Part shown: positions 8,655 to 54,186 of the stretch, in pieces
Position numbering within the stretch: the stretch's first letter is position 1
Layout of the letters: each line of letters begins with the position of its first letter
From: Candidatus Dojkabacteria bacterium
GTDB taxonomy: Bacteria; Patescibacteriota; Dojkabacteria; SC72
NCBI GenBank assembly: GCA_012842045.1
Contig: DUTP01000005.1
Span: 77,430-141,429 of the forward strand
Direction: 5' to 3'
DNA: 64,000 bases
Translations under genes and position numbers: made by a program
The notes under the pieces: generated by a model
The model's database searches: none
The model's input: only the letters and a program-made list of their open reading frames with translations
What the model was told of the DNA's origin: nothing

Positions 8655-9209
8655 ATGCTTAAACGAAGAAAAAAAAGAAAATTTATCAACTTGTTAAATC
8701 CAGTGTATTCTCCTAATGAAGGTTTTGTGAAGGTTTATGAGTGGTTAACATCTGTTGGAAAGTATATGCTGATTGTTGTTGAAATTGTAGCTTTAGCAGT
8801 CTTTATGTCGAGATTTATACTTGATAAAGAAAACAATGATTTAACAGAGGAGATTAATTCGAAGATATCAGTACTTAGTACTGAGCCTTGGAGAAGTAAT
8901 AATATATTTTATGAGAATTATCACAAACTTATTTCTGATGTGTCGGTTGTAAGTAGTAAGCAAGAATTAAATTCTAACGTTGTTAGTGAGATTATTAGCA
9001 GTGTTCCTTTAACTCTTCATTTGCAGACATTTTCTCTGAATGGAGGAAGAGTTTCTCTCACTTTTTCTGCTAGCAATTTGAATGATGTTAGGATATACGA
9101 GTCTGCACTTAAGAGTAATCAACTGTATGATGATGTGACATTTGGTATTTCAAAAGAGGAGTCTGAAATTCAGGTTAACGTAACATTTAATATTAAAGAA
9201 ACTGTATAG
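8655..9209 (+). CDS. pilN: PilN-like type IV pilus assembly protein
   Basis: 184 aa. N-terminal cytoplasmic FINLLNP (the INLLP PilM-binding motif), a single TM helix, then a periplasmic domain. Confidence 0.55.
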   Translation: MLKRRKKRKFINLLNPVYSPNEGFVKVYEWLTSVGKYMLIVVEIVALAVFMSRFILDKENNDLTEEINSKISVLSTEPWRSNNIFYENYHKLISDVSVVSSKQELNSNVVSEIISSVPLTLHLQTFSLNGGRVSLTFSASNLNDVRIYESALKSNQLYDDVTFGISKEESEIQVNVTFNIKETV

Positions 9210-9211
9210 AA

Positions 9212-9826
9212 GTGGCGCAGCAACGAAAGTCTGTTGGACTATTAACAACTATTAGAGAGTCTGCTGAAAAAAGAAATTCATATGCTTCTTTTGCTGTTAG
9301 TTTGTTGATATCAATAGTTTTAATCGTCTTTGCTGTTAAACCGACGATATCTACAATTATTCAGATTAGACAAGGTGTTAAAGAGAAAACGAGAGTGAAT
9401 CAACAGATCCAAGGTAGAATAGATGCTATTTCCAAATTAGATGCGCAGATACAGGAGGAGCAAGAGAAGTTTGAAGCTTTGGAGATGATATTTCCGTCGG
9501 AGAGAGAGTACATTTTACTCCTTGCCAATATAGATGCGGTTATTGCTAGAAATGGGTTTACTTTAATGTCAGTAGGTTTTGACAATCATGATAATGAAAA
9601 TTATAAACTTACAACCCCTATTTTGACTCCGTCAGTTTTGAGATTAAATGTTTCAGGTAAGTATTCTAGTTTTATTAACTTATTGAAAGACTTGGAATCT
9701 CTTCCTATGTGTGCGGTTGTTGAGAATATATCATTTTCTACACAAAAGGATGAAAAGTCTAACTCTTATTTTTCGTTGAGTCTAAGGGTTTATAGTATAG
9801 AGCAAGCTAATTTTTATAAACAGTAG
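9212..9826 (+). CDS. pilO: PilO-like type IV pilus assembly protein
   Basis: 204 aa. TM helix, coiled-coil segment (QQIQGRIDAISKLDAQIQEEQEKFEALE) and a C-terminal domain. Begins 2 nt after the pilN-like gene. Confidence 0.45.
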   Translation: MAQQRKSVGLLTTIRESAEKRNSYASFAVSLLISIVLIVFAVKPTISTIIQIRQGVKEKTRVNQQIQGRIDAISKLDAQIQEEQEKFEALEMIFPSEREYILLLANIDAVIARNGFTLMSVGFDNHDNENYKLTTPILTPSVLRLNVSGKYSSFINLLKDLESLPMCAVVENISFSTQKDEKSNSYFSLSLRVYSIEQANFYKQ

Positions 9827-9827
9827 T

Positions 9828-10064
9828 ATGGAGATACTAAGAAAATATATCTGGGCAATCTTTCTGTTGTTTGCAGTTGTTGTGGTTTGGCTAGGTATAA
9901 CTTTTTTTATTGATGCTAGACAGAAGAGTATTGTTGGAGATATTAATCAGTATACTAGTGTGATTGAAAGTAGTTTTAATATGGATGTTGTTAACTTGGT
10001 ATACGAAAGGTCAGAGAAGACGCTTCCTGAAACACCAAAAGAGTTTTTACTCTCAGTTCAGTAA
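9828..10064 (+). CDS. Small membrane protein (78 aa), third gene of the pilN/pilO-like operon
   Basis: One TM helix (IWAIFLLFAVVVVWLGITFFI). Begins 1 nt after the pilO-like gene. Confidence 0.4.
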   Translation: MEILRKYIWAIFLLFAVVVVWLGITFFIDARQKSIVGDINQYTSVIESSFNMDVVNLVYERSEKTLPETPKEFLLSVQ

Positions 10065-10070
10065 GAGATG

Positions 10071-11150
10071 CTATTCAATATAATCATCAAGTTTTTGTTG
10101 CTCGGATTTCTCTTTGAGTTTTTTTAGTGCTTTTGCTTCTATTTGTCTAATTCTCTCCCTTGTTACACCAAACTCTTTTCCTACCTCTTCTAATGTTCTT
10201 GATACTCCATCTTCTAGTCCAAATCTTAAAGAGAGCACTCTTCTTTCTCTATCTTGTAATCCGTCTAGGATTTCATGTAACTGATTTTTTAGATATTCTG
10301 TTGTGGCATATTCTTCTGGTGATTCTGACCAATCATCTGGGATTAAGTCTTGTAATTTACTATCTTTTTCTTCACCTATTGGTGTTGAGAGAGATGCTGG
10401 ATTTTGGTTAATCTTTTTAATTTCTGCTATTTTTTCTACTTCAACGTCCATTTCTTTGGCAATTTCTTCGTCTGTCGCTGGTCTTCCTAATCTTGTTGCA
10501 AGAATGTTGTTTGTTTTATTGTATTTGTTAATAGTTTCAATCATATGGACAGGGACTCTAATAGTTCTTGCTTGATCTGCAATGGCTCGTGTAATTGCTT
10601 GTCTAATCCACCAAGTAGCATATGTTGAGAATTTGAAACCTTTATTATGGTCAAATTTCTCTACCGCTCTCATTAACCCAATATTTCCCTCTTGTATGAG
10701 GTCTAGAAGCTCTAGATTGGACTTACTATACTTTTTAGCTATACTGACAACCAGTCTTAAATTCGCAGTTGTGAGAAGCTGTACAGCCTCTTCATCCTTG
10801 TTTTCTATCCTCTTGGCTAGAATAACTTCTTCCTCTTTTGTTAAAAGAGGTATTTTTCCAATTTCTGACAAATATGATCTAATGGCATCTGTGGAAAGAG
10901 TAGATTGGATAGATTTAAGTATTTTAATTTTACTCTCAAGAGATAATTCCTCTTGTTCTTGTGGAGGTGCGCTATCCTCTGGTTCTAGCAGTTCTATTTC
11001 ACTTTCCTGTAATTTCACAAAGATTTTATCAAGTAGTTCTATGTTTTCTTCTATTGTTGGAAAAACATCTAAAAGATCTTCCTGTGTAAGAAAACCTTGT
11101 TCTTTTCCTTTTTTTATTAAGAAACTTATTGCTTTCTCGTTACTACCCAT
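10071..11150 (-). CDS. rpoD: RNA polymerase primary sigma factor (sigma-70 family)
   Basis: Region 2 signature [43 protein letters not shown], plus regions 3 and 4. An acidic N-terminal region 1. Confidence 0.9.
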
Positions 11151-11160
11151 TGATTATTTA

Positions 11161-11169
11161 TGGTATAAT
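11161..11169 (+). promoter_or_regulatory. Extended -10 TGGTATAAT lying 6 nt upstream of the ATG at 11176 (leaderless)
   Basis: ttaTGGTATAATttatatATGgac. Confidence 0.45.
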
Positions 11170-11175
11170 TTATAT

Positions 11176-11514
11176 ATGGACAGTGTTAGTAATGCCTTGT
11201 TGCAAAAGAAACAATTTTTTATCGATTCAGTTGCAAAATTTTGTGATAAATGTGGCACCCCTTATACTGTCGATGATCTTAATATCGTCCAGAGCACTGG
11301 AGCTGGGACGATTATACACTTTTCTTGTCAAAATTGTAAGTCTAAACACGTTGCTTCTTTGGTAATGCCTTTGGGATTATCCCAAAGAATGCCTGTTAAT
11401 ATGGATTTGGACAGTTCTGAGATGGAGAAGTTTATGTCACAAAAAGAGTTGACTAAACAGAATATACTTGAAGCTTATGAAGAACTTAAGGATTTGAAAA
11501 CCATAACTCTTTAA
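11176..11514 (+). CDS. Small zinc-ribbon protein (112 aa, CxxC-N24-CxxC), divergent from rpoD
   Basis: The only non-antisense part of the 310-aa track ORF 10582..11514. Sequence MDSVSNALLQKKQFFIDSVAKFCDKCGTPYTVDDLNIVQSTGAGTIIHFSCQNCKSKH. Has its own extended -10. Confidence 0.5.
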   Translation: MDSVSNALLQKKQFFIDSVAKFCDKCGTPYTVDDLNIVQSTGAGTIIHFSCQNCKSKHVASLVMPLGLSQRMPVNMDLDSSEMEKFMSQKELTKQNILEAYEELKDLKTITL

Positions 11515-14500
11515 GATGGTTTGTTCCACATAAGTTTGTATTGCATGTCTCTACTGAGATCAAATCTTCCAGATAGTTGGTTACTAATGGTGTTAAGTCT
11601 TGCTGATTCTACCAGAACCCATGTTGAAGGGAAGATAATATCAAGTTTGTAGGCATGTTTTCTCTCTCCTGCTTGTTTAAATATGTCTAAATCAAAGAAG
11701 ATAGCAGATTCCTCTTCGACTAACGGGAATGTAGAACCCATGTCTCCTCTGTGTAATTGATATGAAATTTCTAATGTGGAGATTTCTCCTACTGGAACAT
11801 TAAACCAACCTCCTATTATCTTAAAACCGCTTTCCCTGTAAATTGAGTGTTTTTCCTCATCCATACCGACGACTTTTAATATTTGTGCTTCAGGAGGAAT
11901 ATACACTCTCTGGTAGTTTTTGTAATCTCCCTGAGGGTATGAATTTGATGTGGAGGTGTTTTCGACAGAAAGTGTGTATTGAAAGGTTATTGTATCTTCG
12001 TCTTTAATATTTACTAAGAGTGCATGACTTTTGTTTAGATATTGATTAGCTTTGTTGCCACCCCAGTTCCAATCAACAAGGACAGGAGCCTCTTTGTATC
12101 TGTTGTCTAAGCTACCGGCCCAATTTCTACTGTTAAAGAAGTTAAATGCTTTGTTGTTTTCAAATGCTACTTGTAGATGTTTTTCATTTAGAGAACTTTC
12201 TAGCACATCGCTAATACTAAGAATCTCTTGGAAGTTCATCGAGAGGAGTTTTTTAATAATTTCATTTGCTAGATTGGCTAAGAAGGTAGTTTTTTGAGTT
12301 GAGCCAGGTGTGAATTCTCTATGCATTTCAAAGACCTTTTCATTAATATTCTGAGCTGTAATTAGCTCGTCCTCACCAGGAACTTCTATCCCTCCCCACT
12401 TGTCTAATAGTTTTTGGAAGAATGCTATGTCAATAGTTATTATCCCATCTATCTTATTTCCTTTTCCTAAATCTGAAATGAATTGCTCTGCTTTGACTCT
12501 TGTTTCTGTTAGATCGGGACTCCAGTTCACTAGTGAGAAAGTCCAATCTCTTAGCTCCAGGGCTTCCATCATAGAGGTTGGTGCTGGGTATTTCTTTCCT
12601 TGTATTTTCAGAGTGCCCTCAGCGTTGTAAATATCATCAACAAAGAGCTCTCTAATCTGTCCTCCTTCTATACCTACAACCCCATAGCTAGTTATCCATC
12701 CTCCGGTAGATCTAATCTCGGACTCGTTTTGTAGGAGAACTAAGTATCTTTTCCTCTCTTCTACACCAAGAATGTCGGGTAGGAATGTAACGGCTTCTTG
12801 ATATGTGACTGTTGCTTCTCCAGCTTTTTTAACAATATCCTTAATTTCTAGTACTTTATCTTGTGCAAATTTAGGAAAAACAGAGGTGTTTACATTTTTC
12901 AATAACTGGTCGGCAAATTGAATTTTATATGCTGCATCTTCTATTTTATGCTTATTTCTATCAATTTCTCTTAGTTGCTCTCTATATTCTCTTGTGGTCG
13001 ATGCGGTACTATCCTGAAATGTCACTGCAGGTTCAAACTCTCTAATATAGGACATTAACGGCGATATCGCCTCTGTGAGTTGTCTCCCTCCCTCTATTGT
13101 ATTTTCTCCTGCAATGAAAACCCGTGAGATGTTACTGTAAACATCTTCTTTCCCGAAGATTGTGAACATCCAAGACATATTGTTAAAGCTATCTGCTGTT
13201 CTAGCTATGCTCTTTTCTAAGCGATCGAAGCTTTTGTTAACATCTGTATCCTGAGCATTGTTTATGGAGTCGAGAATTTTGGTTGCTTTTGATTTAACAG
13301 AGATTAGGCCAAATGTTGTTCCAAGTGTAGGATAGACAACAAAGTATGAGAAAAGTGTTAGAAGGAGTACAATGAAGAGGTTCTTCAAGATGGCTTTGGG
13401 AGTTGGTTTGGAAGTACTTCTGTATGCTTTGATTTTTCTAAAAGGTTCTCCCAATTTATATATTAATGCTCCTAATTCAGTCTTTGTTTCTTTTATATGT
13501 TTTTTGGGCTTTATTCCTATCTTTTTAGGAGATTCTTTCTTAGTAATATCCCAAGATTTGTTGATGTTATCATAATATACTTGTATCTGTTCAATCATTG
13601 CCTTTTCTAGTGTGATTTGTTGAGTCCAACCGTATTTTGTAGCGTGTGGTGCTGGTACATAGAGGTCTTGTATGAGGAAGTTTTCTTCTGGATTGTCTAC
13701 GAATCTAATACTTTGAGCTTCTGTGTTTAATTCCAAGAGTTTATATGCTAACGAGAGCAGTGTGTAATCATTTTTGTTTGCCAAAGATATTACTTCTCCT
13801 TTTGTTTTGTTTGAGAAGGTAAGTTTAAGTATTCCGTATACGGCATCATCTTCGTGTATTAAGTTGTAAATATCTAAACCTTCTCCTCTGATGGTTATCT
13901 GTACATCATCTGTAGCCTCTTTGAAGAGTCGATCTAAAGTAGTATCTTTTATTTTATCAACACCTTTCCCAATTAGTGTTCCAACTCTTAAGATTCTAGC
14001 ATTTATATTAGATTTATCTTTAAATTCTGCAACAAGTGTTTCGCAATATTTTTGTAATTCTATATTAGAATACGGAGTGGGTGTTGCTAGCTTTGTATTA
14101 TTAATCCTGTTCGCTAGTTCCCTGTTAAGTCCTAATGATGTTATTAAAGAGAATTTAGCGTCATTCTTCTTGGCTTGAGTTAGGGCTAATTCTAACTGTT
14201 TTGTTTCTGACAGAAATTCTTTACTATCAAACTCTGTCTGTGAAAGCTTATCTTCCAAGAGGTAGTAAACATAATCGAATCTTTTTATGTTTTTAAATAC
14301 AGAGTCAAAACCTTTAAAGTCAAAGAAATCTACCAAATCAGATCTTTTTAATTCTGAAACATATTTCCTTGTTTCTGAGTTAAATTTATCAATTACTACC
14401 ACATATCCTTTTTGATCGACAAGTGCTTTTGCTAGTTTGTAACCTAACCTATTTCCTCCATGAATGATCAAAGTGATAGGTGTGTTGCTTTTAACTTTAT

Positions 14501-14519
14501 TGAATCTTAAATTACTCAT
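11511..14519 (-). CDS. 1002-aa fusion protein: N-terminal NAD(P)-binding epimerase/dehydratase-like Rossmann domain, one TM helix, ~600-aa extracytoplasmic domain of unknown function
   Basis: TLIIHGGNRLGYKLAKAL glycine-rich dinucleotide-binding loop; TM NLFIVLLLTLFSYFVVY at about residue 380; large C-terminal domain. ATGA 4-nt overlap with the upstream PEGA gene. Confidence 0.55.
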   Translation of the reverse strand: MSNLRFNKVKSNTPITLIIHGGNRLGYKLAKALVDQKGYVVVIDKFNSETRKYVSELKRSDLVDFFDFKGFDSVFKNIKRFDYVYYLLEDKLSQTEFDSKEFLSETKQLELALTQAKKNDAKFSLITSLGLNRELANRINNTKLATPTPYSNIELQKYCETLVAEFKDKSNINARILRVGTLIGKGVDKIKDTTLDRLFKEATDDVQITIRGEGLDIYNLIHEDDAVYGILKLTFSNKTKGEVISLANKNDYTLLSLAYKLLELNTEAQSIRFVDNPEENFLIQDLYVPAPHATKYGWTQQITLEKAMIEQIQVYYDNINKSWDITKKESPKKIGIKPKKHIKETKTELGALIYKLGEPFRKIKAYRSTSKPTPKAILKNLFIVLLLTLFSYFVVYPTLGTTFGLISVKSKATKILDSINNAQDTDVNKSFDRLEKSIARTADSFNNMSWMFTIFGKEDVYSNISRVFIAGENTIEGGRQLTEAISPLMSYIREFEPAVTFQDSTASTTREYREQLREIDRNKHKIEDAAYKIQFADQLLKNVNTSVFPKFAQDKVLEIKDIVKKAGEATVTYQEAVTFLPDILGVEERKRYLVLLQNESEIRSTGGWITSYGVVGIEGGQIRELFVDDIYNAEGTLKIQGKKYPAPTSMMEALELRDWTFSLVNWSPDLTETRVKAEQFISDLGKGNKIDGIITIDIAFFQKLLDKWGGIEVPGEDELITAQNINEKVFEMHREFTPGSTQKTTFLANLANEIIKKLLSMNFQEILSISDVLESSLNEKHLQVAFENNKAFNFFNSRNWAGSLDNRYKEAPVLVDWNWGGNKANQYLNKSHALLVNIKDEDTITFQYTLSVENTSTSNSYPQGDYKNYQRVYIPPEAQILKVVGMDEEKHSIYRESGFKIIGGWFNVPVGEISTLEISYQLHRGDMGSTFPLVEEESAIFFDLDIFKQAGERKHAYKLDIIFPSTWVLVESARLNTISNQLSGRFDLSRDMQYKLMWNKPS

Positions 14520-15166
14520 ACTTCATTTGCTTCCACAATATCCTCGGTTGTTGGGATAGGGAATTGGTAAACCTTTAAGTTTAATTGATATTTTTCTCGT
14601 ACTAGTATTGGAATCTCAATTGGAAGATATCCTTCACTTTCGATTCTTATCTTGTGCTCTCCTTCCGTTAACTCTAAATTTGTGATGGAAGATCTGTTCA
14701 TAAATTCTTTGTCTACATATATTTTAGCATCAGAAGAATTCCCAGTTATTGTTAAAAATCCTTTTTCAGCAGGACTTCTCATTGGTGTATAGTAGAGTAT
14801 TGTCCCATGTAGCAGCTCTTCTGGACCAATCTCTAAATCAATTCTAGCAGATGTGTTTTTTGCAAGTTCTATATTAAAAGAATGTTTTTTGTAGAATGAG
14901 TTCTCTGGAGCAATTCTCTCAAGGTCAACAACATATTTTCCTTCAGGTAAATCTTCTATGGTGACTGGAGTTTCTCCTTCATCTTTTTCGTTGATTTGTA
15001 CTTTTGCTTTGCCATTTTGTACAACGACCTCTAATGTTGTGTTATTGTAGAATCTGTTGAGGAAAGGTAATTTTCCTATTAGTTTGCTGGGTGGGAAGAA
15101 GTAGAAAAGTACAGATAGTACAACGATGGAAACTATTATGATTATGGCAGTTTTTATTTTCTTCAT
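14516..15166 (-). CDS. PEGA-domain membrane-anchored protein
   Basis: N-terminal TM followed by two PEGA-like motifs (LPEGKYVVD; LTEGEHKIRIESEGY). Confidence 0.55.
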   Translation of the reverse strand: MKKIKTAIIIIVSIVVLSVLFYFFPPSKLIGKLPFLNRFYNNTTLEVVVQNGKAKVQINEKDEGETPVTIEDLPEGKYVVDLERIAPENSFYKKHSFNIELAKNTSARIDLEIGPEELLHGTILYYTPMRSPAEKGFLTITGNSSDAKIYVDKEFMNRSSITNLELTEGEHKIRIESEGYLPIEIPILVREKYQLNLKVYQFPIPTTEDIVEANEV

Positions 15167-15198
15167 ACTTTCATTATATGAACAACTCTATCTTTTGT

Positions 15199-15870
15199 CT
15201 ATGGTTGCTTACTAATGAATGAAGAGTATTTAGCTAACTCTTCTCTGAGGTTTCTATCTATGACTAATCCGCTCCACCCATCTTCTTTTCTAACAACATT
15301 TACTACAACAATATCTGCACCGTTGAATAGGGCTGACTGAAGCTCTTTTTGATCTATTCCGCCAGCTGCTCCCACAACAACATTCCATTTACCCTTTATT
15401 TTGGCTATATTTCTGTATTGGATGATTTCACCATAACTGTTTTCTTCATCTCTTCCTCTGTGTATACAGACAACATCAGGGATTATATCTGCTTTCCAGA
15501 GAGATCTTAGAGGATCAGGTGTATTTATCATATCAATCACAGACTTAATATCATTCTTTTTACAAACATCTACAAAAATTCTTAAAGTCTCTTCAGAAGC
15601 ATTGCCTAGAGCAGTAATATAGTCTGCACCAGCTGCTTTTGCCATCTCGACCTCTGCTTTCGCACCATCAACAACTTTGATATCTGCGCATATTAATCCG
15701 CTCCACAGAGATCTCATTCTTCTAACAACATCAATACCTTCCTTTTTGATTAATGGGGTTCCAGCTTCGATTATTATGTTAGGATTCTTTGGAATATATG
15801 GAAGTACAGAAAAAAAGTCTTGAAAAGAAGAGTTAAATGCTAGTTGTAAAAACCTTTTATTTCTTGCCAT
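15199..15870 (-). CDS. 3-hexulose-6-phosphate synthase / KGPDC (OMP-decarboxylase suprafamily) protein
   Basis: IIEAGTPLIKKEG and the DIKVVDGA (DxKxxD) motif. Confidence 0.5.
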   Translation of the reverse strand: MARNKRFLQLAFNSSFQDFFSVLPYIPKNPNIIIEAGTPLIKKEGIDVVRRMRSLWSGLICADIKVVDGAKAEVEMAKAAGADYITALGNASEETLRIFVDVCKKNDIKSVIDMINTPDPLRSLWKADIIPDVVCIHRGRDEENSYGEIIQYRNIAKIKGKWNVVVGAAGGIDQKELQSALFNGADIVVVNVVRKEDGWSGLVIDRNLREELAKYSSFISKQP

Positions 15871-16639
15871 TCCTTACAATACTTTCTACTCCATCAAAAA
15901 AGTTTGTTGGCATTGCAATAATGATTTTTTCTGATGGGTCAGCTGAAATTTCCTTTAGAGTTTGTAATGTTCTTAGAGATAGTGCTCCAGGAGCTTGAGA
16001 GAGTGTCATGGATGCTTCTGCTAGTTTAACAGCAGCTTCTTTTTCACCTTCTGCTTTGATGATTCTTGCTTTTCTATCTCTTTCTGCTTCTGCCTGTTGA
16101 GCCATAGCTCTTTTCATATCTGCAGGAATTTCAATGTTTTGAATTTCAATTGCTGCAATATCTACACCCCATCCTTCTGCTGCACTATCTACGATATTCT
16201 TAATTTCTTCTGCAATTTTAGTTCTTTGAGAAAGTAATGCATCTAATGTAACACTACCGATAATGTCTCTTAGTGCTGTTTGAGATTTAGCAGATATTTG
16301 ATTGATGTAGTGCTGAACTTTAAAAATAGCAACACTAGGATTTACGACTTGGAATCTAACAATACCATCGACCATACATGAGACATTGTCCAAAGTGATA
16401 GCTTCTTGAGTAGGAATGTCCATAACTTGCTCTCGAATATCAACTTTTTGTAGTTTTTCCGCAAATGGGATGATAAAGTTGATACCAGGAGTGACCGTTC
16501 TATTGTATTTCCCAAATCGAACAACCAGTGCATGATATCCTTCTGGAACAATTTTTATAAAAGTTACCAGAACAATTAGAACCAAAACAACAAGAATTAT
16601 AATTCCTTCCATGATATTTAAAAGGTTAATATTAAACAA
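15857..16639 (-). CDS. SPFH/band-7 (stomatin-like) membrane protein
   Basis: N-terminal TM, SPFH core (IVPEGYHALVVRFGKY...), C-terminal AQQAEAERDRKARIIKAEGEKEAA coiled coil. Confidence 0.85.
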   Translation of the reverse strand: MFNINLLNIMEGIIILVVLVLIVLVTFIKIVPEGYHALVVRFGKYNRTVTPGINFIIPFAEKLQKVDIREQVMDIPTQEAITLDNVSCMVDGIVRFQVVNPSVAIFKVQHYINQISAKSQTALRDIIGSVTLDALLSQRTKIAEEIKNIVDSAAEGWGVDIAAIEIQNIEIPADMKRAMAQQAEAERDRKARIIKAEGEKEAAVKLAEASMTLSQAPGALSLRTLQTLKEISADPSEKIIIAMPTNFFDGVESIVRNGKK

Positions 16640-17886: not shown

Positions 17887-18357
17887 TTAGTTATTTACTA
17901 AATTAACTAAAATCACAGTCAGCGAGATTATAGCGATTATTATACTTACAAGCAAAAGTTTTGTTAAATGTTTTTCTCTGCTGTAGTTTCTAGATGCAAA
18001 AATAAATGTGGGGACTGAGATAGTAGTTGAGATAATAGGGTATAAGTAAATCATTTCCTTTGGTGTGAGTATATTTTTGGGGTTTATATAAAACTTGAAA
18101 ATAGGAAGAGATGTTGGAAGCGAATTAATATTTGTAGAAATAATATATACTTGATAGAGAGTTAAAATAAGAAAAGCCATTAAAGCAGCCCACACAAGAG
18201 GGTCTTTCAAAAACTTTACAACCTCCAACTTGATAACAACATCATCAAAGTCTTTTTTGATTTTATAGAATCTATTTTTAAAAGGCTCTTCTATCTCTAA
18301 ATCTAATTGTTTATATTGTTCCTCTTCTGTTTTTCCTTTTTTAGAAACTTTTTTCAT
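17887..18357 (-). CDS. Hypothetical membrane protein (156 aa)
   Basis: ORF with several TM helices, directly abutting the transferase gene. Confidence 0.4.
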   Translation of the reverse strand: MKKVSKKGKTEEEQYKQLDLEIEEPFKNRFYKIKKDFDDVVIKLEVVKFLKDPLVWAALMAFLILTLYQVYIISTNINSLPTSLPIFKFYINPKNILTPKEMIYLYPIISTTISVPTFIFASRNYSREKHLTKLLLVSIIIAIISLTVILVNLVNN

Positions 18358-35545: not shown

Positions 35546-36478
35546 TTATTTAGTACTCTCAATCCTCTCCCAACCACTTTTAGGCATATCTTTCTTGAGA
35601 ACTTTTCTTTCCCAGAATATCCTTATCCATGTAATAAGTCTTGCAGGAAAGAGCATTAAAGACCATATGAATTCTTTAAAGTTTTTAGCATATTTCAATA
35701 CAAATCCAGCATATTCTAACTCTATCCAAAAACTTCTAGTTTGTTTGTCCTTTTGAAAAACACCCATCTGTTCAAGTTGAGTAAAACCTCCTACAGATCT
35801 AACTTTCTGTTTAAGGTAATCTTTAAAATTGGCTGGGTATTTAACATAACAGATGGCTTTAGGAGCATATCCAACTTCCAAACCATTGTTTCTAACGGTG
35901 TATGAAATATATGCATCATCGGAGAGTGTATTAGATGGTAATTTAATATTTTTGTTCCTAACTGCCATGATATAGCCACTCATAGGGTAGAATGTCTCAT
36001 CGCTTACATAATAGTCTTTGACTTTTTCTGCAGTATTAATTCTTTTGTCATGTGCTGAGTCAGAGAGTAGGTGTCCCCAATATCCAAACATATTATCTCT
36101 TTTATCTTTTGATACGGGTCTTCCACCAACACCACCAACTTTGCTATCTTCAAATGGTTTGAGTAATTCTTTAACAGCATTCTTTTCAAAATGAGTATCG
36201 CCATCTGTTAGTATTAAGATATCCCCCTTAGCCTTTTTAAAAGCCATTTTTAAAGCATAAGGCTTACCTTTTCTAGGGTCTTTAATTTGGATATATTTCT
36301 TTCCTAGTCTATACTTTTTTGCTTCTCTCAAACCAGCATCTAAGGTTTCTTTATCAGGGGATACTTGTATTATTTCAAACTGTATTGGTATACCTGAGTA
36401 TTTTCGATTCCCTATTGCAGCAATACAGCGTCCAATAGTCTTGGGCTCTTTAAATGAAGTTATTATTACAGAAACCAT
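35546..36478 (-). CDS. Family 2 glycosyltransferase
   Basis: VSVIITSFKE...ILILTDGDTHF (DxD-like) GT-A fold motifs. The stop abuts the Fic gene stop. Confidence 0.7.
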   Translation of the reverse strand: MVSVIITSFKEPKTIGRCIAAIGNRKYSGIPIQFEIIQVSPDKETLDAGLREAKKYRLGKKYIQIKDPRKGKPYALKMAFKKAKGDILILTDGDTHFEKNAVKELLKPFEDSKVGGVGGRPVSKDKRDNMFGYWGHLLSDSAHDKRINTAEKVKDYYVSDETFYPMSGYIMAVRNKNIKLPSNTLSDDAYISYTVRNNGLEVGYAPKAICYVKYPANFKDYLKQKVRSVGGFTQLEQMGVFQKDKQTRSFWIELEYAGFVLKYAKNFKEFIWSLMLFPARLITWIRIFWERKVLKKDMPKSGWERIESTK

Positions 36479-42392: not shown

Positions 42393-44219
42393 ATGCCTTA
42401 TCATATTACCCATATAATTAATAAGTGTTGCACAATGTCGAATAATTCAAAGCAGAAGAACAGTGTCTACATGATGATGGCATTGCTTCTAATCACTAAA
42501 GTATTAGGTTTTCTAAAGCTAAGAATTATTGCCCAGCTCTTTGGAGCTACGCATGAATTAGATATCTTTTGGGCAGCATTCACAATACCAGATACTCTCT
42601 TTATGATAATTGTTGCAGGTTCTCTCAATGCTGCTATCATTCCTCTATTAGCATCAGTATTACATAAAGAAGGAGAGAAGAAGCTGAATGAGTTTTTTAC
42701 CAACCTAATGATTGTCATCAGTTCAATTATTGTTTTCATAGCAGTTCTTCTCTTTATCTTTGCACCTCAACTAACAAGTTTCCTGATTAGATCAGATGTA
42801 TCACAGAGTATTCTTAATTTCTCAAGTAGGATAACACAGGAAGACTTTAAGTTGTTTGTAGATTTGACTAGAATTATGATGATATCTCCTGTACTACTAG
42901 GTATTAGTACAATAGTTACAGGGTACCTTCAAACTAGAAGAGAGTTTTTCATTACATCTCTTGCACCTCTAATGTACAACCTAGCAATGGTTGTAGGACC
43001 AATTATTTTTGTAGTTGGTTTTAAAATGGGTGTGAAGGGAGTTGCAATCTGTGCAGTGCTAGGTTCGTTCCTTCATTTTGCAGTACAAATCCCTACACTT
43101 AGAAAATATTTCAAAGAAAAGGTTAAACTAACTAAGAAAAGCATTGTAAGTGCTGTGAAAGATTCTGCAATCTGGAAAGGTTTAAAGCTAGCTGTGCCAA
43201 AGATGATTTCAACCATAGGGGAACAGATAAATATTGTTGTTAATACATTGATAAGTTTTTCCTTAGCAGCAGGAGCTCTTAGTTCTTACAAGTTTGCACT
43301 TAGTCTCTATCTCTTTCCTGTTAATATAGTAGGAGGCGCTTTTGCACAGTCTGTCTTACCAGAACTGTCTTCTAAAGCAGATAAACAGAAGGAATTTAAA
43401 GATGTTTTTAACAAAACAATCCAATTAGCTCTCTTTTTAGTACTTCCAATAGTTAGTATTCTACTTGTTCTTAGATTGCCAATTGTTAGATTAACTTTTG
43501 GTGTTGGAGAATTTGACTGGAGAGCAACAGTTCTTACATCTTGGTGCTTGGTATTTCTTTCTCTTGCAATATTAAGTCAAACACTCTCACAGATACTTTT
43601 AAGAGCTTTTTATGCACTTAAAGAAACATGGAAACCTCTTCTAGCAGTGGGTGTAGGGATAGTGGTTAATATTGTTTTTGCATTCCTACTAACAAACTTC
43701 TTTAGTCATTACTACGACTGGAGACCGATACTCCAGCAGGTATTAGAACAGATTGCAACTGCGAATGGTAGTGGGGTGGTAGAGGTAATAAAATCATTTT
43801 TTGCAGATATATTTACATGGTGTACTACTCGAGGAACTTCTGATATGGCAGTGGGTGGCTTATCTATGAGTTTGAGTTTAGCTTCTTTTGTCGAATTAAT
43901 CTTGCTTTTCTGTTTACTAAACAAAGAGGTAAAAATCATTACCTACAAGGATACAGTGAAGCCTATGCTTAAGAAGGTTTTGAATGGTATCTTAATGGCG
44001 GTAGGTATGTATCTAGTATTCAAGCTTTTTGATTTCAAATTAGATACTACAAGAACAATTTCAATCATTATTCTTACAATAGTGACTTCTCTCTATGGTC
44101 TGCTTTCTTACTGGCTTGGTTCTAAAGTCTTCGAAATTAAAGAGGTTGGTCGTTTTGAAGAAAAAGTAAAAAGTGTTTGGGAAAAATTGAAGAAGAAAGT
44201 TAAGGTATGGGTAAAGTAA
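42393..44219 (+). CDS. murJ: Lipid II flippase MurJ/MviN
   Basis: 14-TM MOP-superfamily pattern (LGFLKLRIIAQLFGAT...). The true start may be the internal Met at about 42435. Confidence 0.8.
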   Translation: MPYHITHIINKCCTMSNNSKQKNSVYMMMALLLITKVLGFLKLRIIAQLFGATHELDIFWAAFTIPDTLFMIIVAGSLNAAIIPLLASVLHKEGEKKLNEFFTNLMIVISSIIVFIAVLLFIFAPQLTSFLIRSDVSQSILNFSSRITQEDFKLFVDLTRIMMISPVLLGISTIVTGYLQTRREFFITSLAPLMYNLAMVVGPIIFVVGFKMGVKGVAICAVLGSFLHFAVQIPTLRKYFKEKVKLTKKSIVSAVKDSAIWKGLKLAVPKMISTIGEQINIVVNTLISFSLAAGALSSYKFALSLYLFPVNIVGGAFAQSVLPELSSKADKQKEFKDVFNKTIQLALFLVLPIVSILLVLRLPIVRLTFGVGEFDWRATVLTSWCLVFLSLAILSQTLSQILLRAFYALKETWKPLLAVGVGIVVNIVFAFLLTNFFSHYYDWRPILQQVLEQIATANGSGVVEVIKSFFADIFTWCTTRGTSDMAVGGLSMSLSLASFVELILLFCLLNKEVKIITYKDTVKPMLKKVLNGILMAVGMYLVFKLFDFKLDTTRTISIIILTIVTSLYGLLSYWLGSKVFEIKEVGRFEEKVKSVWEKLKKKVKVWVK

Positions 44220-45396: not shown

Positions 45397-46878
45397 ATGA
45401 AACTTGGTTTTGACAATGACAAATATATAAAGATACAAAGTCAAAATATTCTCAAAAGAACTAAACTTTTCGATAAACTCTATCTTGAGATAGGTGGAAA
45501 GTTATTTGATGATACTCATGCTTCAAGAGTGTTGCCTGGGTTTCAAGCAGATGTAAAAGTGAAAATGTTCCAGAAATTAAAGGAAGATATCGAAGTGGTA
45601 TTTTGTATAAGTGCTAATGATATAGAGAGGAATAAGGTTAGAGCAGAGTATGGAATAACATATGATACAGAAGTGATTAGGTTGATAGGGAACTTACAAA
45701 AGATGGGGTTCTCCATTAATTCTGTTGTAATAACTTTGTATAAAAATCAACCAACAGTTGATACTTTTATTGCTAAGCTTAAACGATATAAGATTAAGAC
45801 ATATATTCATAGGTATACAAAAGGATATCCTACAGATATAGATACAATTGTTAGTGAAGAGGGGTATGGAGCTAATCCGTATATTGAAACTAAGAAAAAG
45901 ATAATACTGGTTACTGCTCCGGGACCAGCTTCTGGTAAATTAGCAACTTGTCTCTCTCAGCTCTATCATGAACATCAAAGAGGAGTGAATGCAGGATATG
46001 CAAAGTTTGAAACTATGCCAGTATGGAATCTCCCATTGAAACATCCTTTAAATATGGCTTATGAAGCAGCCACTGCAGATCTTGGAGATGTTAGTATGTT
46101 AGACTATTTCCACTTAGAGGAATATGGTGAAAAGGCAGTTAGTTATAATAGGGACTTAGAGGTTTTTCCTGTTCTTAAGACAATATTAAACAGGATTGTA
46201 GGAAAAGATGTATACAAATCTCCAACCGATATGGGTGTGAATATGATAGGGGAGTGTATCAAGGATGATAAGGTTGTGCAGGAGGCATCGAAGAAGGAAA
46301 TTGTTAGGAGGTATTACAATGAGATGTGTAACTACAAATTAGGTATAGCTGAGTATGAAGTTCCTGAAAGGGTGAAGAAATTGATGAATGAGTTAAAGAT
46401 AGATGAGTACTATCTTGATGTTGTTAGACCTGCTTTAAAGAAGGCCAGGCGAATAGATAAACACGTTATTTCTCTTAAATTACCAAGTGGGAATATAATT
46501 ACAGGAAGAGAAACAGATCTGTTGAGTCCGGCTAGTAGCTTAATTTTAAATGCTATTAAAGAATTGTCTAATATCCCTGATAATATAAATCTGTTATCAC
46601 CTACTGTACTTAAACCGATGTTAGAACTTATTCCTAGAACAGAAGAGAGAGATGAAACATTAGGTTTAGAAGAAGTTCTAATAGCCTTAAGTATCTCTTC
46701 TGTGACTAATCCTTCTGTGGAGGAGGCTTTAAGTAGTATGAAAAAATTAGCTGGAAGTGATGCACATGCTACATATATAGTAAGTAATGGTGATCTTAAA
46801 ATGTTGAAAAGATTAAAGATTAATCTTACTTGTCAGCCAGTGTTCTATTCTAACAAAATTTATACACTGTCAAAGTGA
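45397..46878 (+). CDS. DUF1846/UPF0371 family protein
   Basis: N-terminus MKLGFDNDKYIKIQSQNILKR...GGKLFDDTHASRVLPGF resembles UPF0371 proteins as I recall them; ~490 aa is the usual size. Confidence 0.55.
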   Translation: MKLGFDNDKYIKIQSQNILKRTKLFDKLYLEIGGKLFDDTHASRVLPGFQADVKVKMFQKLKEDIEVVFCISANDIERNKVRAEYGITYDTEVIRLIGNLQKMGFSINSVVITLYKNQPTVDTFIAKLKRYKIKTYIHRYTKGYPTDIDTIVSEEGYGANPYIETKKKIILVTAPGPASGKLATCLSQLYHEHQRGVNAGYAKFETMPVWNLPLKHPLNMAYEAATADLGDVSMLDYFHLEEYGEKAVSYNRDLEVFPVLKTILNRIVGKDVYKSPTDMGVNMIGECIKDDKVVQEASKKEIVRRYYNEMCNYKLGIAEYEVPERVKKLMNELKIDEYYLDVVRPALKKARRIDKHVISLKLPSGNIITGRETDLLSPASSLILNAIKELSNIPDNINLLSPTVLKPMLELIPRTEERDETLGLEEVLIALSISSVTNPSVEEALSSMKKLAGSDAHATYIVSNGDLKMLKRLKINLTCQPVFYSNKIYTLSK

Positions 46879-49673: not shown

Positions 49674-50422
49674 TATTGTTATCAGAAAAAGAAGAGAAAT
49701 CTTTAATTTCTGGGTCAGGATATCTGTATATATTTTTACTGTTGAGGTAGGTCGTAATGTTTTACAGTGAAGATTACAGAATCCGTAGTTGCACATTTAA
49801 AACTGAATAGAAAGTAATTTCAATTAAGCAAATTAAGGGCGTATGGTGAATGCCTTGGCACAAAAGATCGATGAAGGACGTAGTAGATTGCGATAAGCTT
49901 CGGGTAGCTGTCAAACGAGCTTTGATCCGAAGATCTCCGAATGGAGTAATCCAACTGGGATTATGCCCAGTTATCATGCAGTGAATTCATAGCTGTATAG
50001 AAGAGCACGCAGGGAAGTGAAACCTCTCAGTACCTGCAGGAAAAGAGAACAAGAGTTTATTCCCCTAGTAGTGGCGAGCGAAAAGGGAAGAGCCTAAACC
50101 TATACTGTGTAAGAGGAATACGAAGCCTGATTCGCGTTGCGATGATGGCGGACTTGAACTCGCAGGTTGCTACTCGTGCAGTATGGGTGTTGTAAGAGTT
50201 AATGGAAGTGGTAGCAAACACTTCGAGGAGTTACAAAATTCCATTTTAGTAGAATATATCTGGAAAGATATGCCATAGAGAGTGATAGCCTCGTATACGA
50301 AAATGTGGAATCTCCTTTTTAATTTCTTAAGTACCACGGAACACGTGAGATTTTGTGGGAATCAGCCGATACCACTCGGCAAGGCTAAATATCTTTTGTG
50401 ACCGATAGCGAATTAGTATAGA

Positions 50423-50466
<44 letters not shown>

Positions 50467-51975
50467 ACTGAAACCATATGCTTACAAACAGTCGTAGCTG
50501 GTATATCCAGTGGCGGCGTGCCTATTGAAGAATGACCCAGTGAGTTCGTTGTGTGTGGCAAGGTTAACCATGTTTATTGGGGAGCCGAAGCGAAAGCGAG
50601 TCCGAATAGGGCACCTTGAGTCACATGCACGAGACCCGAAACCAGGTGATCCAGCCATGAGCAGAGTGAAGTTCTGAGAAATCAGGATGGAGGCTCGAAC
50701 TCGTTAATGTTACAAAATTATGAGATGACTTGTGGCTAGCGGTAACATGCCAAACGAACCTGGTAATAGCTGGTTCTCCCCGAAATAGCTTTAGGGCTAG
50801 CGTTGTGATTTAAGATGTGGGGGTAGAGCACTGATTGAATTTGGGGCCCGAAAGGGTACCCACTTCAGTCAAACTCCGAATACCATATTGAACATCACAG
50901 CAGTTAGAGCTAGGGATCTAAGTTCCTATGCTCAAGAGGGAAACAGCCCAGATCGTCAGATAAGGACCCTAAATTTTACCTTAGTGGGAAAGGAAGTGAA
51001 ATTTCTCAGACAGTTAGGAGGTTGGCTTAGAGGCAGCCATCCTTTAAAAAATGCGTAAAAGCTTACTAATCAAGAGATTTTGCACTTAAAATTAACGGGG
51101 CTGAAGGTAAATTCCGAAGCTGCGAATTTATACATACTTCGGTATGTATGGGTGGTAGGGGAGCGTTCTATACATGACCGACTTAGCAGTCGGTAATTAG
51201 CTGCGAAGGTGGCCCGTAAGGAGTTGCTGGAGCGTATAGAAGTGAGAATGCTGGGATGAGTAACGTAAAGCAGGTGAAAACCCTGCTCGCTGAATGTCTA
51301 AGGTTTCCATGGCTATGTCAGTCAACCATGGGTTAGTCGGTCCTAAGGAGAGGCTGAAAAGCGTATCCGATGGATAACAGGTTAATATTCCTGTACTACT
51401 GATATTTGAAATGGAGTATGAGGATTGAAGATGCAGGCCCCTTATTGGTTTGGGGTGTAAGCAACAAGAGAGCTCTTCTAGGAAAATCCGGAAGAGTGTT
51501 TCCACCTCGGTGGATGAACGCGAGTTGTGATACAAAGGTGACCTTCGGGAAGCCGATTTGTAGTACTTAATTCTCCAGGAAAAACTTCTATCTTTAACTA
51601 CTTCGGTAGTTAATAAAGTATTAGTAACCGTACTGCAATCCGACACCGGTAGACTGGTGTAAAAGCACCAAGGCGTACGAGTTATGCGTTGTTAAGGAAT
51701 TCGGCAAATTGACCCCGTAAGTTCGCAAGAAGGGGGACTCTACATCATAAGTTTTTTATTTGTGGTGATTAGAGTGGCACAGAATAGGGAAGAACGACTA
51801 GTTACCAAAACTACAGGCGCTTGCAAACTCGCAAGAGGATGTATAAGTGCTGACACCTGCCCAATGCCAGAAGGTTAAGATAATTTGTTAGCTCTCTGCT
51901 GGGTGCACTTCGGTGCCCTAGTGGTTGCGAAGCAAAGAGTCGAAGCCCTGGTCAATGGCGGCTGTAACTATTAGA

Positions 51976-53064
51976 CCTGGTGGGGTAGCAATACCCTGCC
52001 AGGAATTGTAGTTGTAAAATTTGGCTATATGCTGGAACGTCTGAGTATTTCTTGCTACTCATTAGATGATATTCAAATTGTAAGAAATTTGTAATCTCTA
52101 GTAGTTAAAATGTAAGAATGCAGATAATCAGCAGGAAAGATTTGTAATGTCAGATCCTATTTTTACAGAACAATTGAAATGGTTTCTCTCTGGATTTATC
52201 GATGGAGAGGGAAGCTTTTGTCTTAATATTAAGAGTAGAAAGGACTCTAGGTATGGTTTGAGAATAGAGCCAGCTTTTTATGTTTATCAACATGAAAAAA
52301 GTGTCCATATACTTGAATTGTTAAGAAAGATGTTTGGATGTGGAAGTATCCATAGAAAAACATCACCGTATAGCGTTTTTACGTATCAGATTTCTGGTAT
52401 AAAACCTTGCTATACCAAAGTTATTCCTTTCTTTGAGAAGTATCCGTTAATCGTAAAGTCTCAGACTTTTGAAATTTTCAAAAGAGCTGTTGATTTTATG
52501 TATAAAAAGCGACATCTAACTAAGGAAGGTTTTCTTTACTTGGTGGATTTAGTATATGAGATAAACCAACAAGGGAAAGGTAAAAAATGGGATAAAGAGA
52601 CAATAATTACAAAAATCCTCAGAGACTATACGCCAAACTCCTGATAGGGAGATGAGATAGTCCGACCTGTATGGCGACATACAGATGTATATAGAAATAT
52701 ATACACGAATCTAACAAACGTTGTTAGAGGGTAACACAAGTGAACGGTGGTAGATATATATCTACTGAGATATTTGCTAATCTCGGTTTGCTATCTAAAG
52801 ATATAGGGCCGTTTTAAAATCTAGCTATATGCTGGAACATCCTAAACGATACAAGTACCAAAGAGTAACAATCTTGTATTTATGGACAATCAGCAGGAAA
52901 GATCCAAGAAATTGGAAATCCTCAGAGGCTACATGCTAGACACAATATAATATTGTGAAGATATAGTCCGACCTCTACAGTGATGTAGAGAGATACACGA
53001 AGGTGTATCCGCCTAAAAATAGGTCTTCTAGTTTAATGAACACTAGATGGAAGTAACAGAAATG
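51976..53064 (+). mobile_element. Intron in 23S rRNA carrying a homing-endonuclease gene, with an internal degenerate endonuclease-less duplicate of the intron unit (boundaries uncertain by a few nt)
   Basis: rRNA homology breaks after ...CTATTAGA and resumes at CCTAAGGTAGCG (E. coli ~1917-1926 hotspot). The repeat blocks listed under the corresponding finding occur twice. Confidence 0.7.
52147..52644 (+). CDS. LAGLIDADG homing endonuclease (single-motif, 165 aa) encoded within the 23S intron
   Basis: LSGFIDGEGSF motif. Confidence 0.85.
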   Translation: MSDPIFTEQLKWFLSGFIDGEGSFCLNIKSRKDSRYGLRIEPAFYVYQHEKSVHILELLRKMFGCGSIHRKTSPYSVFTYQISGIKPCYTKVIPFFEKYPLIVKSQTFEIFKRAVDFMYKKRHLTKEGFLYLVDLVYEINQQGKGKKWDKETIITKILRDYTPNS

Positions 53065-53633
53065 CCTAAGGTAGCGTAATACCTTGTCACTTAATTAGTG
53101 ACTTGCATGAAAGGTGTAACGATTTTTCCTCTGTCTCGACAACGTGCTCGGTGAAATTGAAATGGCTGTGAAGATGCGGCCTACCTATACCAGGACAAAA
53201 AGACCCCGTGGAGCTTTACTTCAGCTTTGCATTGAGATAAGGTCTCGGATGTATAGAATATGTGGGAGACTATGAAGCAGTTTCGTCAGGAATTGCGGAG
53301 TCGACAGTGTAATACCACTCTTTTGATATTTTATTTCTAACAGTGTCCATTATCTGGATTCTAGACAGTGCATGGTGGGAAGTTTGACTGGGGCGGTTGC
53401 TTGCTAAAGAGTACCGCAAGCGCACTAAGGTCTCCTCAACCCGGATGGAAATCGGGTGAAGAGTGCATAAGCATAAGGAGGCTTTACTGTGAGGGAGACA
53501 TCCCGATCAGTTACGAAAGTAGGTTTAAGTGACCCTTTGGTTGCGCGTGGAAGCGCCATTGTTTAACGGAGATAAGCTACCCCGGGGATAACAGGCTAGT
53601 CTTGCCCGATAGTTCATATTGACGGCAAGGTTC

Positions 53634-53665
<32 letters not shown>

Positions 53666-53698
53666 ATTGGATAAGATCCCAAGGGTTGGACTGTTCGT

Positions 53699-53729
<31 letters not shown>

Positions 53730-54186
53730 CCGGCGTAAGCCAGGTCGGTCTCTATCCGGTATAGGCGTTGTATATTTGAGAGAATCATCCCCTAGTACGA
53801 AAGGATCGGGGAATGGTAACCTCTGGTCTACCAGCTGTTCTACCAAGAGCATAGCTGGGTAGCTAAGTTGCTTTCGGATAAGCACTGAAGGCATATAAGT
53901 GCGAAGCCAAACTCAAGATTAAATATACTTGTGTAGCTTGACTACATGGAAGGTCTGTGGAAGACTACCACATTGATAGGCTCTAAGTGTGAGTATAGTG
54001 ATATACTTAGCTGAGGAGTACTAATTGACCAAAAGCTTCTTTGATTTTTTATTACTTTCTGTTCGGTTTTGAGTGTACAATTACACTCTCGCTCTTTAGA
54101 ATTAAGTCCTGAGCTCTTCGAAAGAAGAGGTCAGGCAAAAGGTATTTATATCTATCTATATATATATAGATAGATAGATTCTTTTT

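Follow-up and report, generated by a model that had tools for sequence, protein, structure and literature searches.

The stretch of DNA analysed here, called the window throughout, comprises 64,000 nucleotides of a Candidatus Dojkabacteria bacterium (contig DUTP01000005.1, positions 77,430 to 141,429), and the subject is a block of five minus-strand genes built around a 1002-residue protein in which an epimerase-like domain is fused to a large extracytoplasmic domain. An earlier note, made from the letters alone, had read the block as one envelope operon. The five open reading frames (ORFs), with the names used below, are:

11511-14519, minus strand: fusion gene, ORF of 1002 aa
14516-15166, minus strand: PEGA gene, ORF of 216 aa
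15199-15870, minus strand: gene of a 3-hexulose-6-phosphate synthase (HPS)-like protein, ORF of 223 aa
15857-16639, minus strand: SPFH gene, ORF of 260 aa
16678-17886, minus strand: GT4 gene, ORF of 402 aa

All five are found at the positions that had been given for them, and the junctions, read directly (GAAGTATGAGTAAT), agree with the coordinates: the PEGA stop codon and the fusion start codon share an ATGA at 14516-14519, and the SPFH and HPS-like genes overlap by 14 nt at 15857-15870. All the earlier domain assignments are upheld by Pfam matches. The suspected origin in the Patescibacteria is upheld as well, the fusion homologues in public records belonging to Candidatus Dojkabacteria (candidate division WS6).

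A tblastn comparison set all window genes against 78 related loci from genomes of as many GTDB species, each with a full-length fusion homologue 35-91% identical to that of the window. In nearly all 78 the gene order is methyltransferase-KsgA-TM156-GT4-PEGA-fusion-(small zinc-ribbon gene)-RpoD, TM156 being a 156-aa membrane protein. Apart from the window, a single locus, L001 (the 91% relative), has an SPFH plus HPS-like pair between GT4 and PEGA; both genes are already missing from L002, the relative at 85%, where PEGA directly follows GT4. In two other Dojkabacteria contigs the same overlapping Band_7-OMPdecase pair lies after a GH3 gene in unrelated surroundings (L087 4262-5663, L088 4256-5663), the overlap again measuring 14-17 nt. 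As other Dojkabacteria have the pair in different genomic places and no locus of the 78 beyond L001 has it here, it is an independent cassette that entered the GT4/PEGA gap by transposition in the window's lineage, a recent arrival at 15199-16639 that is functionally unrelated to its surroundings and lies outside the conserved unit. The block is thus a composite of three units side by side, namely GT4, the SPFH+HPS cassette and the PEGA+fusion pair.

The tight packing that suggested one operon is real, and so are the overlaps. The co-directional run, however, spans DnaG to the fusion gene with housekeeping genes included: TM156 abuts GT4, its stop codon directly adjoining the GT4 start codon, and KsgA, the methyltransferase and DnaG follow upstream with 22- and 8-nt overlaps. 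Since the same abutting and overlapping spacing continues beyond the block, such boundaries are a property of a compact genome and not evidence of one five-gene functional operon. With SPFH+HPS a separate cassette and the adjacency of GT4 limited to Dojkabacteria-like synteny, the proposal of one envelope operon is only partly upheld, and the apparent five-gene operon is a compact-genome packing artefact plus one transposed cassette. In a scan for promoters and terminators the counts were at or below the shuffled expectation. One promoter-like site lies in the HPS-PEGA gap:

15173-15201, minus strand: TAGACA-17-TATAAT, 11/12 matches, a weak site in a scan that as a whole is not above chance

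This site is a possible, if weak, candidate for a promoter of the PEGA+fusion pair's own.

Within the cassette, the SPFH protein carries a Band_7 domain (PF01145, E 1e-41, 143 bits) and an N-terminal membrane anchor (hydropathy scan, transmembrane residues 13-31), and scores below the cut-offs of the HflK and HflC equivalog models. The HPS-like protein is a clear member of the OMPdecase/HUMPS superfamily (PF00215, E 2.5e-17). NCBIfam models of the HPS type match it down to 2e-42, all below their cut-offs, the best being NF009833 for the HPS half (145 bits vs a cut-off of 274), and HxlA TIGR03128 (3-hexulose-6-phosphate synthase) gives 108.5 bits vs 200. HPS homologues are widespread across the candidate phyla radiation (CPR). 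The usual partner of SPFH genes is NfeD; here a membrane scaffold is paired with a sugar-phosphate enzyme instead.

The association of PEGA with the fusion is of another kind. Among the Dojkabacteria loci that include the upstream flank, essentially all have PEGA directly before the fusion gene. The same holds for L089-L093 and for more distant fusion relatives from public assemblies, where PEGA stands at -7 to +38 nt, often overlapping the fusion gene, in all five of the otherwise different contexts (L081, L083-L086) and where the neighbours are UvrA/UvrC, ribosomal proteins S9/L13, LepA, sigma-70 on the other side, and others. As the adjacency is kept despite differing flanks, PEGA and the 1002-aa fusion form a conserved unit, and the two genes are probably translationally coupled. 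The PEGA protein consists of an N-terminal membrane anchor (residues 6-24) and two PEGA beta-sandwich domains, which Pfam recognizes as two stretches of PF08308 (E 7e-18, 64.8 bits vs a cut-off of 20.8). Domains of this family are typical of S-layer and surface proteins; a literature search on PEGA in CPR envelopes found nothing.

The third unit, GT4, had been described as a WecA/MraY-type sugar-phosphate transferase just upstream, which agrees with its match to Glycos_transf_4 (PF00953, E 2e-15, 57.5 bits vs a cut-off of 27) and with the 10-11 or so hydrophobic segments of a polytopic membrane protein in the hydropathy scan. The nearest NCBIfam model is WecA TIGR02380 (E 2e-14, but 53.5 bits vs a cut-off of 326), and GT4 is best described as a putative, divergent WecA/TagO-like polyprenyl-phosphate sugar-1-phosphate priming transferase. 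It adjoins the PEGA+fusion pair in nearly all Dojkabacteria loci and additionally in L083 and L089-L093. TM156 (17887-18357) has no significant family match, only a sub-threshold one to MFS_1; it precedes GT4 in L083 as well as in essentially all loci of the Dojkabacteria and may be a partner of this transferase.

The fusion protein itself gives two Pfam matches above the gathering score, Epimerase (PF01370, residues 25-243, E 9e-8, 32 bits vs a cut-off of 20.9) and DUF4012 (PF13196, residues 588-726, E 3e-18, 67-68 bits vs a cut-off of 28), the latter bearing out the resemblance to DUF4012 proteins that had been raised only tentatively. Between them the hydropathy scan finds one hydrophobic segment, residues 377-395, with a Lys/Arg-rich stretch on its N-terminal side. 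Together with the AlphaFold2 (AF2) models and with structural and residue comparisons discussed below, these results divide the protein as follows, SDR standing for short-chain dehydrogenase/reductase:

13560-14477, minus strand: extended-SDR N-domain, residues ~15-320 (PDB profile matches, Foldseek, residue mapping)
13323-13391, minus strand: single transmembrane helix, residues ~377-399 (hydropathy; AF2 model with a long helix beginning at residue 374)
12771-13307, minus strand: helical stalk, a membrane-proximal bundle of long helices, residues ~405-583 (AF2)
12084-12758, minus strand: DUF4012 alpha/beta core, residues ~588-812 (PF13196, AF2)
11514-12083, minus strand: C-terminal beta-sandwich, residues ~813-1002 (AF2)

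The single hydrophobic segment after a Lys/Arg-rich stretch fits a predicted single-pass, N-in, C-out topology, in line with the cytoplasmic N-domain, single helix and extracytoplasmic domain described before.

On the other hand, the fusion is not the unusual protein it had been taken for. With the ectodomain alone as query, phmmer finds 8132 clusters at E <= 1e-3 (1.84 billion representative proteins, clusters at 50% identity); among the best 150 of these, 126 are at least 800 aa long, and 120 of the 126 carry an SDR-like N-domain homologous to that of the window. The architecture SDR-transmembrane helix-DUF4012 hence dominates among the closest relatives and is already annotated in NCBI and JGI records of WWE3, Microgenomates and other Patescibacteria. 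When one relative was used as the query, more than 100 proteins of ~1000-1100 aa were returned, assigned to unclassified Patescibacteria or to candidate division WWE3 where a record names the organism. Among the Pfam domains precomputed for them are Epimerase, GDP_Man_Dehyd, Polysacc_synt_2 (PF02719) and DUF4012, and they are named 'NAD-dependent epimerase/dehydratase family protein' or 'DUF4012 domain-containing protein' by NCBI and, in some cases, 'UDP-glucuronate decarboxylase' by JGI. The SDR-like N-domain is likewise present in nearly every complete gene from a sample of 80 metagenome loci (22-48% identity). DUF4012 is described as enriched in Gram-positive bacteria and found across CPR groups (PMC6744442); the searchable literature names it in only three papers, holds no functional study of it and does not mention PF13196.

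In one Dojkabacteria metagenome-assembled genome (L072, 7983-11227) the fusion frame ends after 384 codons and the tblastn match restarts ~1 kb further on, a break that could be an insertion, a frameshift or an assembly error. At 511-3129 of L170 lies a 586-aa DUF4012 protein that has no SDR domain and whose start is overlapped by a 130-aa ORF. It shares its RNase H ... L25 surroundings with the full-length fusion of L082 (2070-5659), and its N-domain may have been secondarily lost or split off. Both non-fusion DUF4012 contexts, L169 and L170, are short or CPR contigs.

For the N-domain, the profile of the fusion family retrieves from the PDB sequences a UDP-galactose 4-epimerase of Pyrococcus (8rdg/8rdi) and UDP-glucuronate decarboxylase (UXS), and Foldseek places the full-length AF2 model in the extended-SDR fold with GME, UXS and GalE (target-normalized TM-score, TMt, 0.5-0.67 over ~330 columns). 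UXS is the best match of the WWE3-type N-domain: that of the WWE3 relative P0198 aligns with human UXS1 (hUXS1) at E 9e-42 and ungapped across the catalytic Tyr/Lys stretch, and the active-site register of the window was mapped through this alignment. The catalytic centre of hUXS1 consists of Thr118, Tyr147 and Lys151 with the UXS-specific Ser119, Glu120 and Arg277, and the Y147F variant is inactive (PMC3438964). The correspondences are:

hUXS1 Thr118: window Ser128 (Ser/Thr retained)
hUXS1 Ser119: window Leu129
hUXS1 Glu120: window Gly130
hUXS1 Tyr147: window Asn152
hUXS1 Lys151: window Gln156

Both UXS-specific residues covered by the mapping, Ser119 and Glu120, are replaced. The TGxxGxxG loop reads I-H20-G-G-N23-R-L-G26 in the window, with His and Asn for the first and second motif glycines. 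The pattern is general: across 72 Dojkabacteria loci, with an independent set of 53 alongside, the Lys position is Gln in 72/72, the Tyr position is never Tyr, Gly20 occurs in 3/72 and Gly23 in 0/72. As the catalytic Tyr and Lys have given way to Asn and Gln and the UXS Ser and Glu to Leu and Gly, and as only one of the three NAD-loop glycines is left, no catalysis is expected, and the N-domain is a predicted pseudoenzyme descended from UDP-glucuronate decarboxylase. The proposal of an active epimerase/dehydratase-like domain, for which the earlier note had made the YxxxK motif of these enzymes decisive, does not survive Asn152, Gln156 and the altered loop.

Two YxxxK strings do occur in the N-domain, at Y27 and Y228; they lie in non-catalytic helices outside the active-site register. 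The string Y150xxxE154 was considered as a YxxxK altered to YxxxE and was ruled out by the hUXS1 alignment, which sets Y150 opposite an Ala of UXS and fixes the register at N152/Q156.

An active NAD(P)-dependent nucleotide-sugar epimerase/dehydratase supplying the donor for GT4, with the five genes as one glycan-assembly operon, is on these grounds highly improbable. It would account for the above-gathering Pfam Epimerase match and the extended-SDR fold, for the conservation of D44 (at the end of beta-2) and S128, and for the tight packing of the genes, but it has to contend with Asn152/Gln156 at the catalytic positions across the Dojkabacteria loci examined, where Y147F alone inactivates hUXS1, with the two replaced loop glycines and the off-register Y27 and Y228 strings, and with SPFH+HPS as a transposed cassette.

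The degeneration is most advanced in the branch to which the window belongs. A PEGA-linked subfamily (the 72 Dojkabacteria and 10 others) was compared with a PEGA-less one of 27 loci from WWE3 and other Patescibacteria:

NAD glycine loop: PEGA-linked degenerate (Gly20 3/82, Gly23 0/82); PEGA-less canonical G-G-G in 22/27
Catalytic-Lys position: PEGA-linked Gln in 81/82; PEGA-less Lys in 17/27
Catalytic-Tyr position: PEGA-linked never Tyr; PEGA-less Tyr in 2/27, mostly Leu, His or Ala

The CPR SDR-transmembrane helix-DUF4012 proteins (WWE3, Microgenomates and others) share with the window protein the three-part architecture at ~950-1100 aa, the topology and the invariant ectodomain motifs, and are mostly without the catalytic Tyr. 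The PEGA-less relatives differ in that most retain a GGAGFIG NAD loop (22/27) and many the catalytic Lys (17/27) and, in those examined, in having no upstream PEGA, whereas the subfamily of the window has lost the canonical loop and the catalytic Lys and is always paired with PEGA. Judged by these residues, the whole fusion family appears to be catalytically compromised. Dinucleotide binding has probably been kept by about half of the family and probably not by the branch of the window. As to UXS itself (hUXS1; PDB 2b69, 4gll), it is among the nearest solved sequence relatives and has the same two-subdomain extended-SDR fold, but five active-site residues and the glycine loop are altered in the window N-domain, which moreover is tethered to a membrane protein.

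The ectodomain was modelled with AF2 from residues 405-1002 and an alignment of 60 Dojkabacteria sequences (mean pLDDT 82.8, pTM 0.78), which resolves the three parts listed above. The stalk finds only coiled-coil or designed-bundle proteins in PDB sequence-profile searches. The DUF4012 hidden Markov model (HMM) matches 24/24 diverse ectodomain relatives, and with Pfam at E up to 10 the window ectodomain and these 24 give only DUF4012. PDB sequence profiles of the full-length protein and of a diverse ectodomain find no solved homologue of the DUF4012 core, nor is there one among the listed Foldseek matches. In Foldseek searches against PDB and BFVD only the beta-sandwich was matched, at a query-normalized TM-score (TMq) of ~0.2, by domain I of an M1 aminopeptidase, a subunit of the human oligosaccharyltransferase (OST) complex (chain E) and ITIH1; from such generic beta-sandwich matches no function was drawn. 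HMM and structure searches found no LCP, penicillin-binding protein or Wzz match of the ectodomain either, DUF4012 being the only family found.

The DUF4012 core and the beta-sandwich both carry many invariant residues. Across sequences of 22-48% identity E601, R603, G606, G607, G620, Y631, N665, N818, K823, G864, Y866, K948 and G951 are invariant, and D629, W666, N724, K743, N825 and R871 nearly so; the beta-sandwich carries an invariant D-W-N-W-G-G-N-K-x-N motif and the group Y866/N868/Y869/R871. This acidic, basic, amide and aromatic set would be compatible with a sugar- or phosphate-binding site and is diagnostic of nothing. It also bears on the suggestion that the ectodomain is a non-enzymatic envelope or S-layer spacer or anchor whose polar residues bind peptidoglycan or the S-layer, with PEGA as a structural co-anchor. 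The long helical stalk and the beta-sandwich, the lack of an enzyme-family match and the usual company of PEGA domains in S-layer and surface proteins all speak for such a structural role; invariance of charged and polar residues at 22-48% identity (E601, R603, N665, N818, K823, Y866 and K948, with D629 and R871 nearly so) is, on the other hand, more typical of an active or ligand site, and we regard the spacer or anchor as unlikely.

The statements made so far on the anatomy and evolution of the locus, namely the composite block, the PEGA pairing, the topology, the UXS ancestry with loss of catalysis, the three-part ectodomain and the size and distribution of the family, are jointly held with high confidence. 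What the pair does is more tentative. The DUF4012 head, held off the membrane by the helical stalk and working with the membrane-anchored PEGA protein, would bind or process a cell-surface glycopolymer that is started on polyprenyl phosphate by a GT4-type enzyme, while the dead SDR domain, rather than act as an enzyme, would dock or sense a ligand on the cytoplasmic side, perhaps a UDP-sugar or the precursor machinery. A role in glycopolymer handling is suggested because priming transferases and Wzz-like proteins recur as neighbours in three lineages and because the family is restricted to monoderm-type bacteria. These functional assignments, surface glycopolymer handling and a docking or sensing SDR, are possible rather than probable; anatomy and mechanism taken together as one explanation have, in our estimate, an even chance. 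For PEGA and the fusion, no reading fits better than the broad earlier one, which saw here a poorly characterised factor of the cell surface or of glycans.

A parallel comes from the exopolysaccharide (EPS) cluster of Bifidobacterium longum, in which a DUF4012 gene lies between a priming glycosyltransferase and Wzz (PMC5412050). The protein concerned, BL105A_0406 of the EPS/capsular polysaccharide (CPS) cluster of B. longum 105-A, shares DUF4012 with the window fusion, and its flanking priming phosphoglycosyl transferase and Wzz parallel GT4 here and the Wzz-like protein in WWE3. It differs in that its ~576 aa (1730-bp gene) are too short for an SDR domain of ~340 residues and in that no PEGA is listed beside it, and it is annotated only as 'auxiliary protein'. 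The SDRs of the WbpM/PglF/CapD type (Polysacc_synt_2) resemble the fusion as membrane-attached nucleotide-sugar SDRs beside glycan-initiating enzymes, and the WWE3 relatives do give PF02719. These SDRs are active and carry N-terminal transmembrane segments and no ectodomain. In the window fusion, by comparison, the SDR domain is N-terminal and, to judge from its residues, catalytically dead, and a 600-aa ectodomain follows.

Several observations weigh against a glycopolymer role. GT4 is not beside the PEGA+fusion pair in L081 and L084-L086, and as it accompanies the pair only in loci that retain the broader synteny of the Dojkabacteria type, in a region that includes RpoD, MetRS and KsgA, the linkage of GT4 to the pair may be passive. 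No Wzx, Wzy or glycosyltransferase cluster lies near the block in the 64-kb window, and the searchable literature offers no direct evidence for any DUF4012 activity or ligand. The WWE3 loci, finally, hint at a different or broader role. In both of them (L079 10175-14896, L080 10153-15241) the opposite strand carries, just upstream, the genes of an RNase H and of a ~200-aa protein with two transmembrane segments, which in L080 gives a weak Wzz match, and the fusion gene is followed within 20 nt on the same strand by PrgI-like, TraC-like and VirB4/TraG-like genes.

The fusion and PEGA might accordingly be sought in a pilus- or type-IV-secretion-like cell-cell contact apparatus of episymbiont-type bacteria, with DUF4012 as a wall-spanning scaffold or wall-remodelling factor. 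Besides the PrgI/TraC/VirB4/TraG-like genes of the two WWE3 genomes, this could draw on the PilN/PilO-like genes that lie ~2 kb away in the window and beside the pair in L085. Those genes, however, are on the opposite strand with rpoD between, and travel with rpoD as general synteny; no PrgI, TraC or VirB4 homologue was found in the 64-kb window, and L081, L082, L084, L086 and L170 are without such neighbours. A contact apparatus thus seems quite unlikely. Surface glycopolymer handling by PEGA and the fusion remains preferred, and a more far-reaching version of it can be put forward. PEGA and the pseudo-UXS-transmembrane helix-DUF4012 protein might constitute a CPR-wide trans-envelope device in which a former nucleotide-sugar enzyme, turned into a cytoplasmic sensor or docking domain, reports the precursor supply to the extracellular DUF4012 head or recruits it there. 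This head might represent a carbohydrate-active enzyme with a new fold, by which minimal monoderm bacteria build or attach a surface glycopolymer for their envelope or for host contact. Both propositions together are a long shot.

For the window itself the result is mostly corrective, as the fusion turns out to be a new member of a large, already annotated DUF4012 family and not a one-off. That family, with its 8132 clusters, is very large and is reported to be shared by CPR and Gram-positive lineages (PMC6744442), and in the CPR the domain is usually joined to a UXS-derived domain that has lost catalysis. The predicted pseudoenzyme, the split into a PEGA-linked and an NAD-loop-intact branch and the invariant residues, which amount to a mutagenesis list, make an abundant CPR and monoderm domain of this kind experimentally approachable.

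Around the block, the remaining window holds housekeeping genes (PilM/FtsA-like, RNase J, LeuRS, MetRS, PilN/PilO-like, RpoD, DnaG, RodZ-like, FtsK, RpoB/C, DnaK/GrpE/HrcA and MurJ) and an rRNA operon. On the other side of the fusion gene, a 310-aa ORF at 10582-11514 (plus strand) is spurious, as most of it runs antisense to rpoD; only its last 112 codons, at 11176-11514 (plus strand), make up the real gene. This gene encodes a CxxC...CxxC zinc-ribbon protein with no Pfam match, converges on the fusion gene with a 4-nt overlap and travels with rpoD in L083, L085 and L086. Type IV pilus components are represented by PilM/FtsA-like, PilN-like and PilO-like proteins and a 78-aa membrane protein (1508-2755, 8655-9209, 9212-9826 and 9828-10064), of which the PilN/PilO-like and 78-aa genes are kept beside rpoD across Dojkabacteria loci. 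The only other envelope-glycan candidates of the window, a GT2 glycosyltransferase, a MurJ-type flippase and a DUF1846 protein (35546-36478, 42393-44219 and 45397-46878), are 20-30 kb from the block.

The 23S rRNA gene (49822-54044) measures ~4.2 kb against a 2.9-kb model and carries an ORF for a LAGLIDADG endonuclease together with a match to a group I intron (52147-52644 and 52762-52990), so that the large-subunit rRNA contains at least one intron or insertion. Near the end of the window, 57112-63327 encodes a predicted 2071-aa surface protein with seven DUF285 repeats, Big_12/Big_13 and a C-terminal CarboxypepD_reg domain, directly preceded by a 201-aa CarboxypepD_reg protein (63361-63966), an arrangement of a small beta-sandwich protein before a large exoprotein that echoes PEGA and the fusion.

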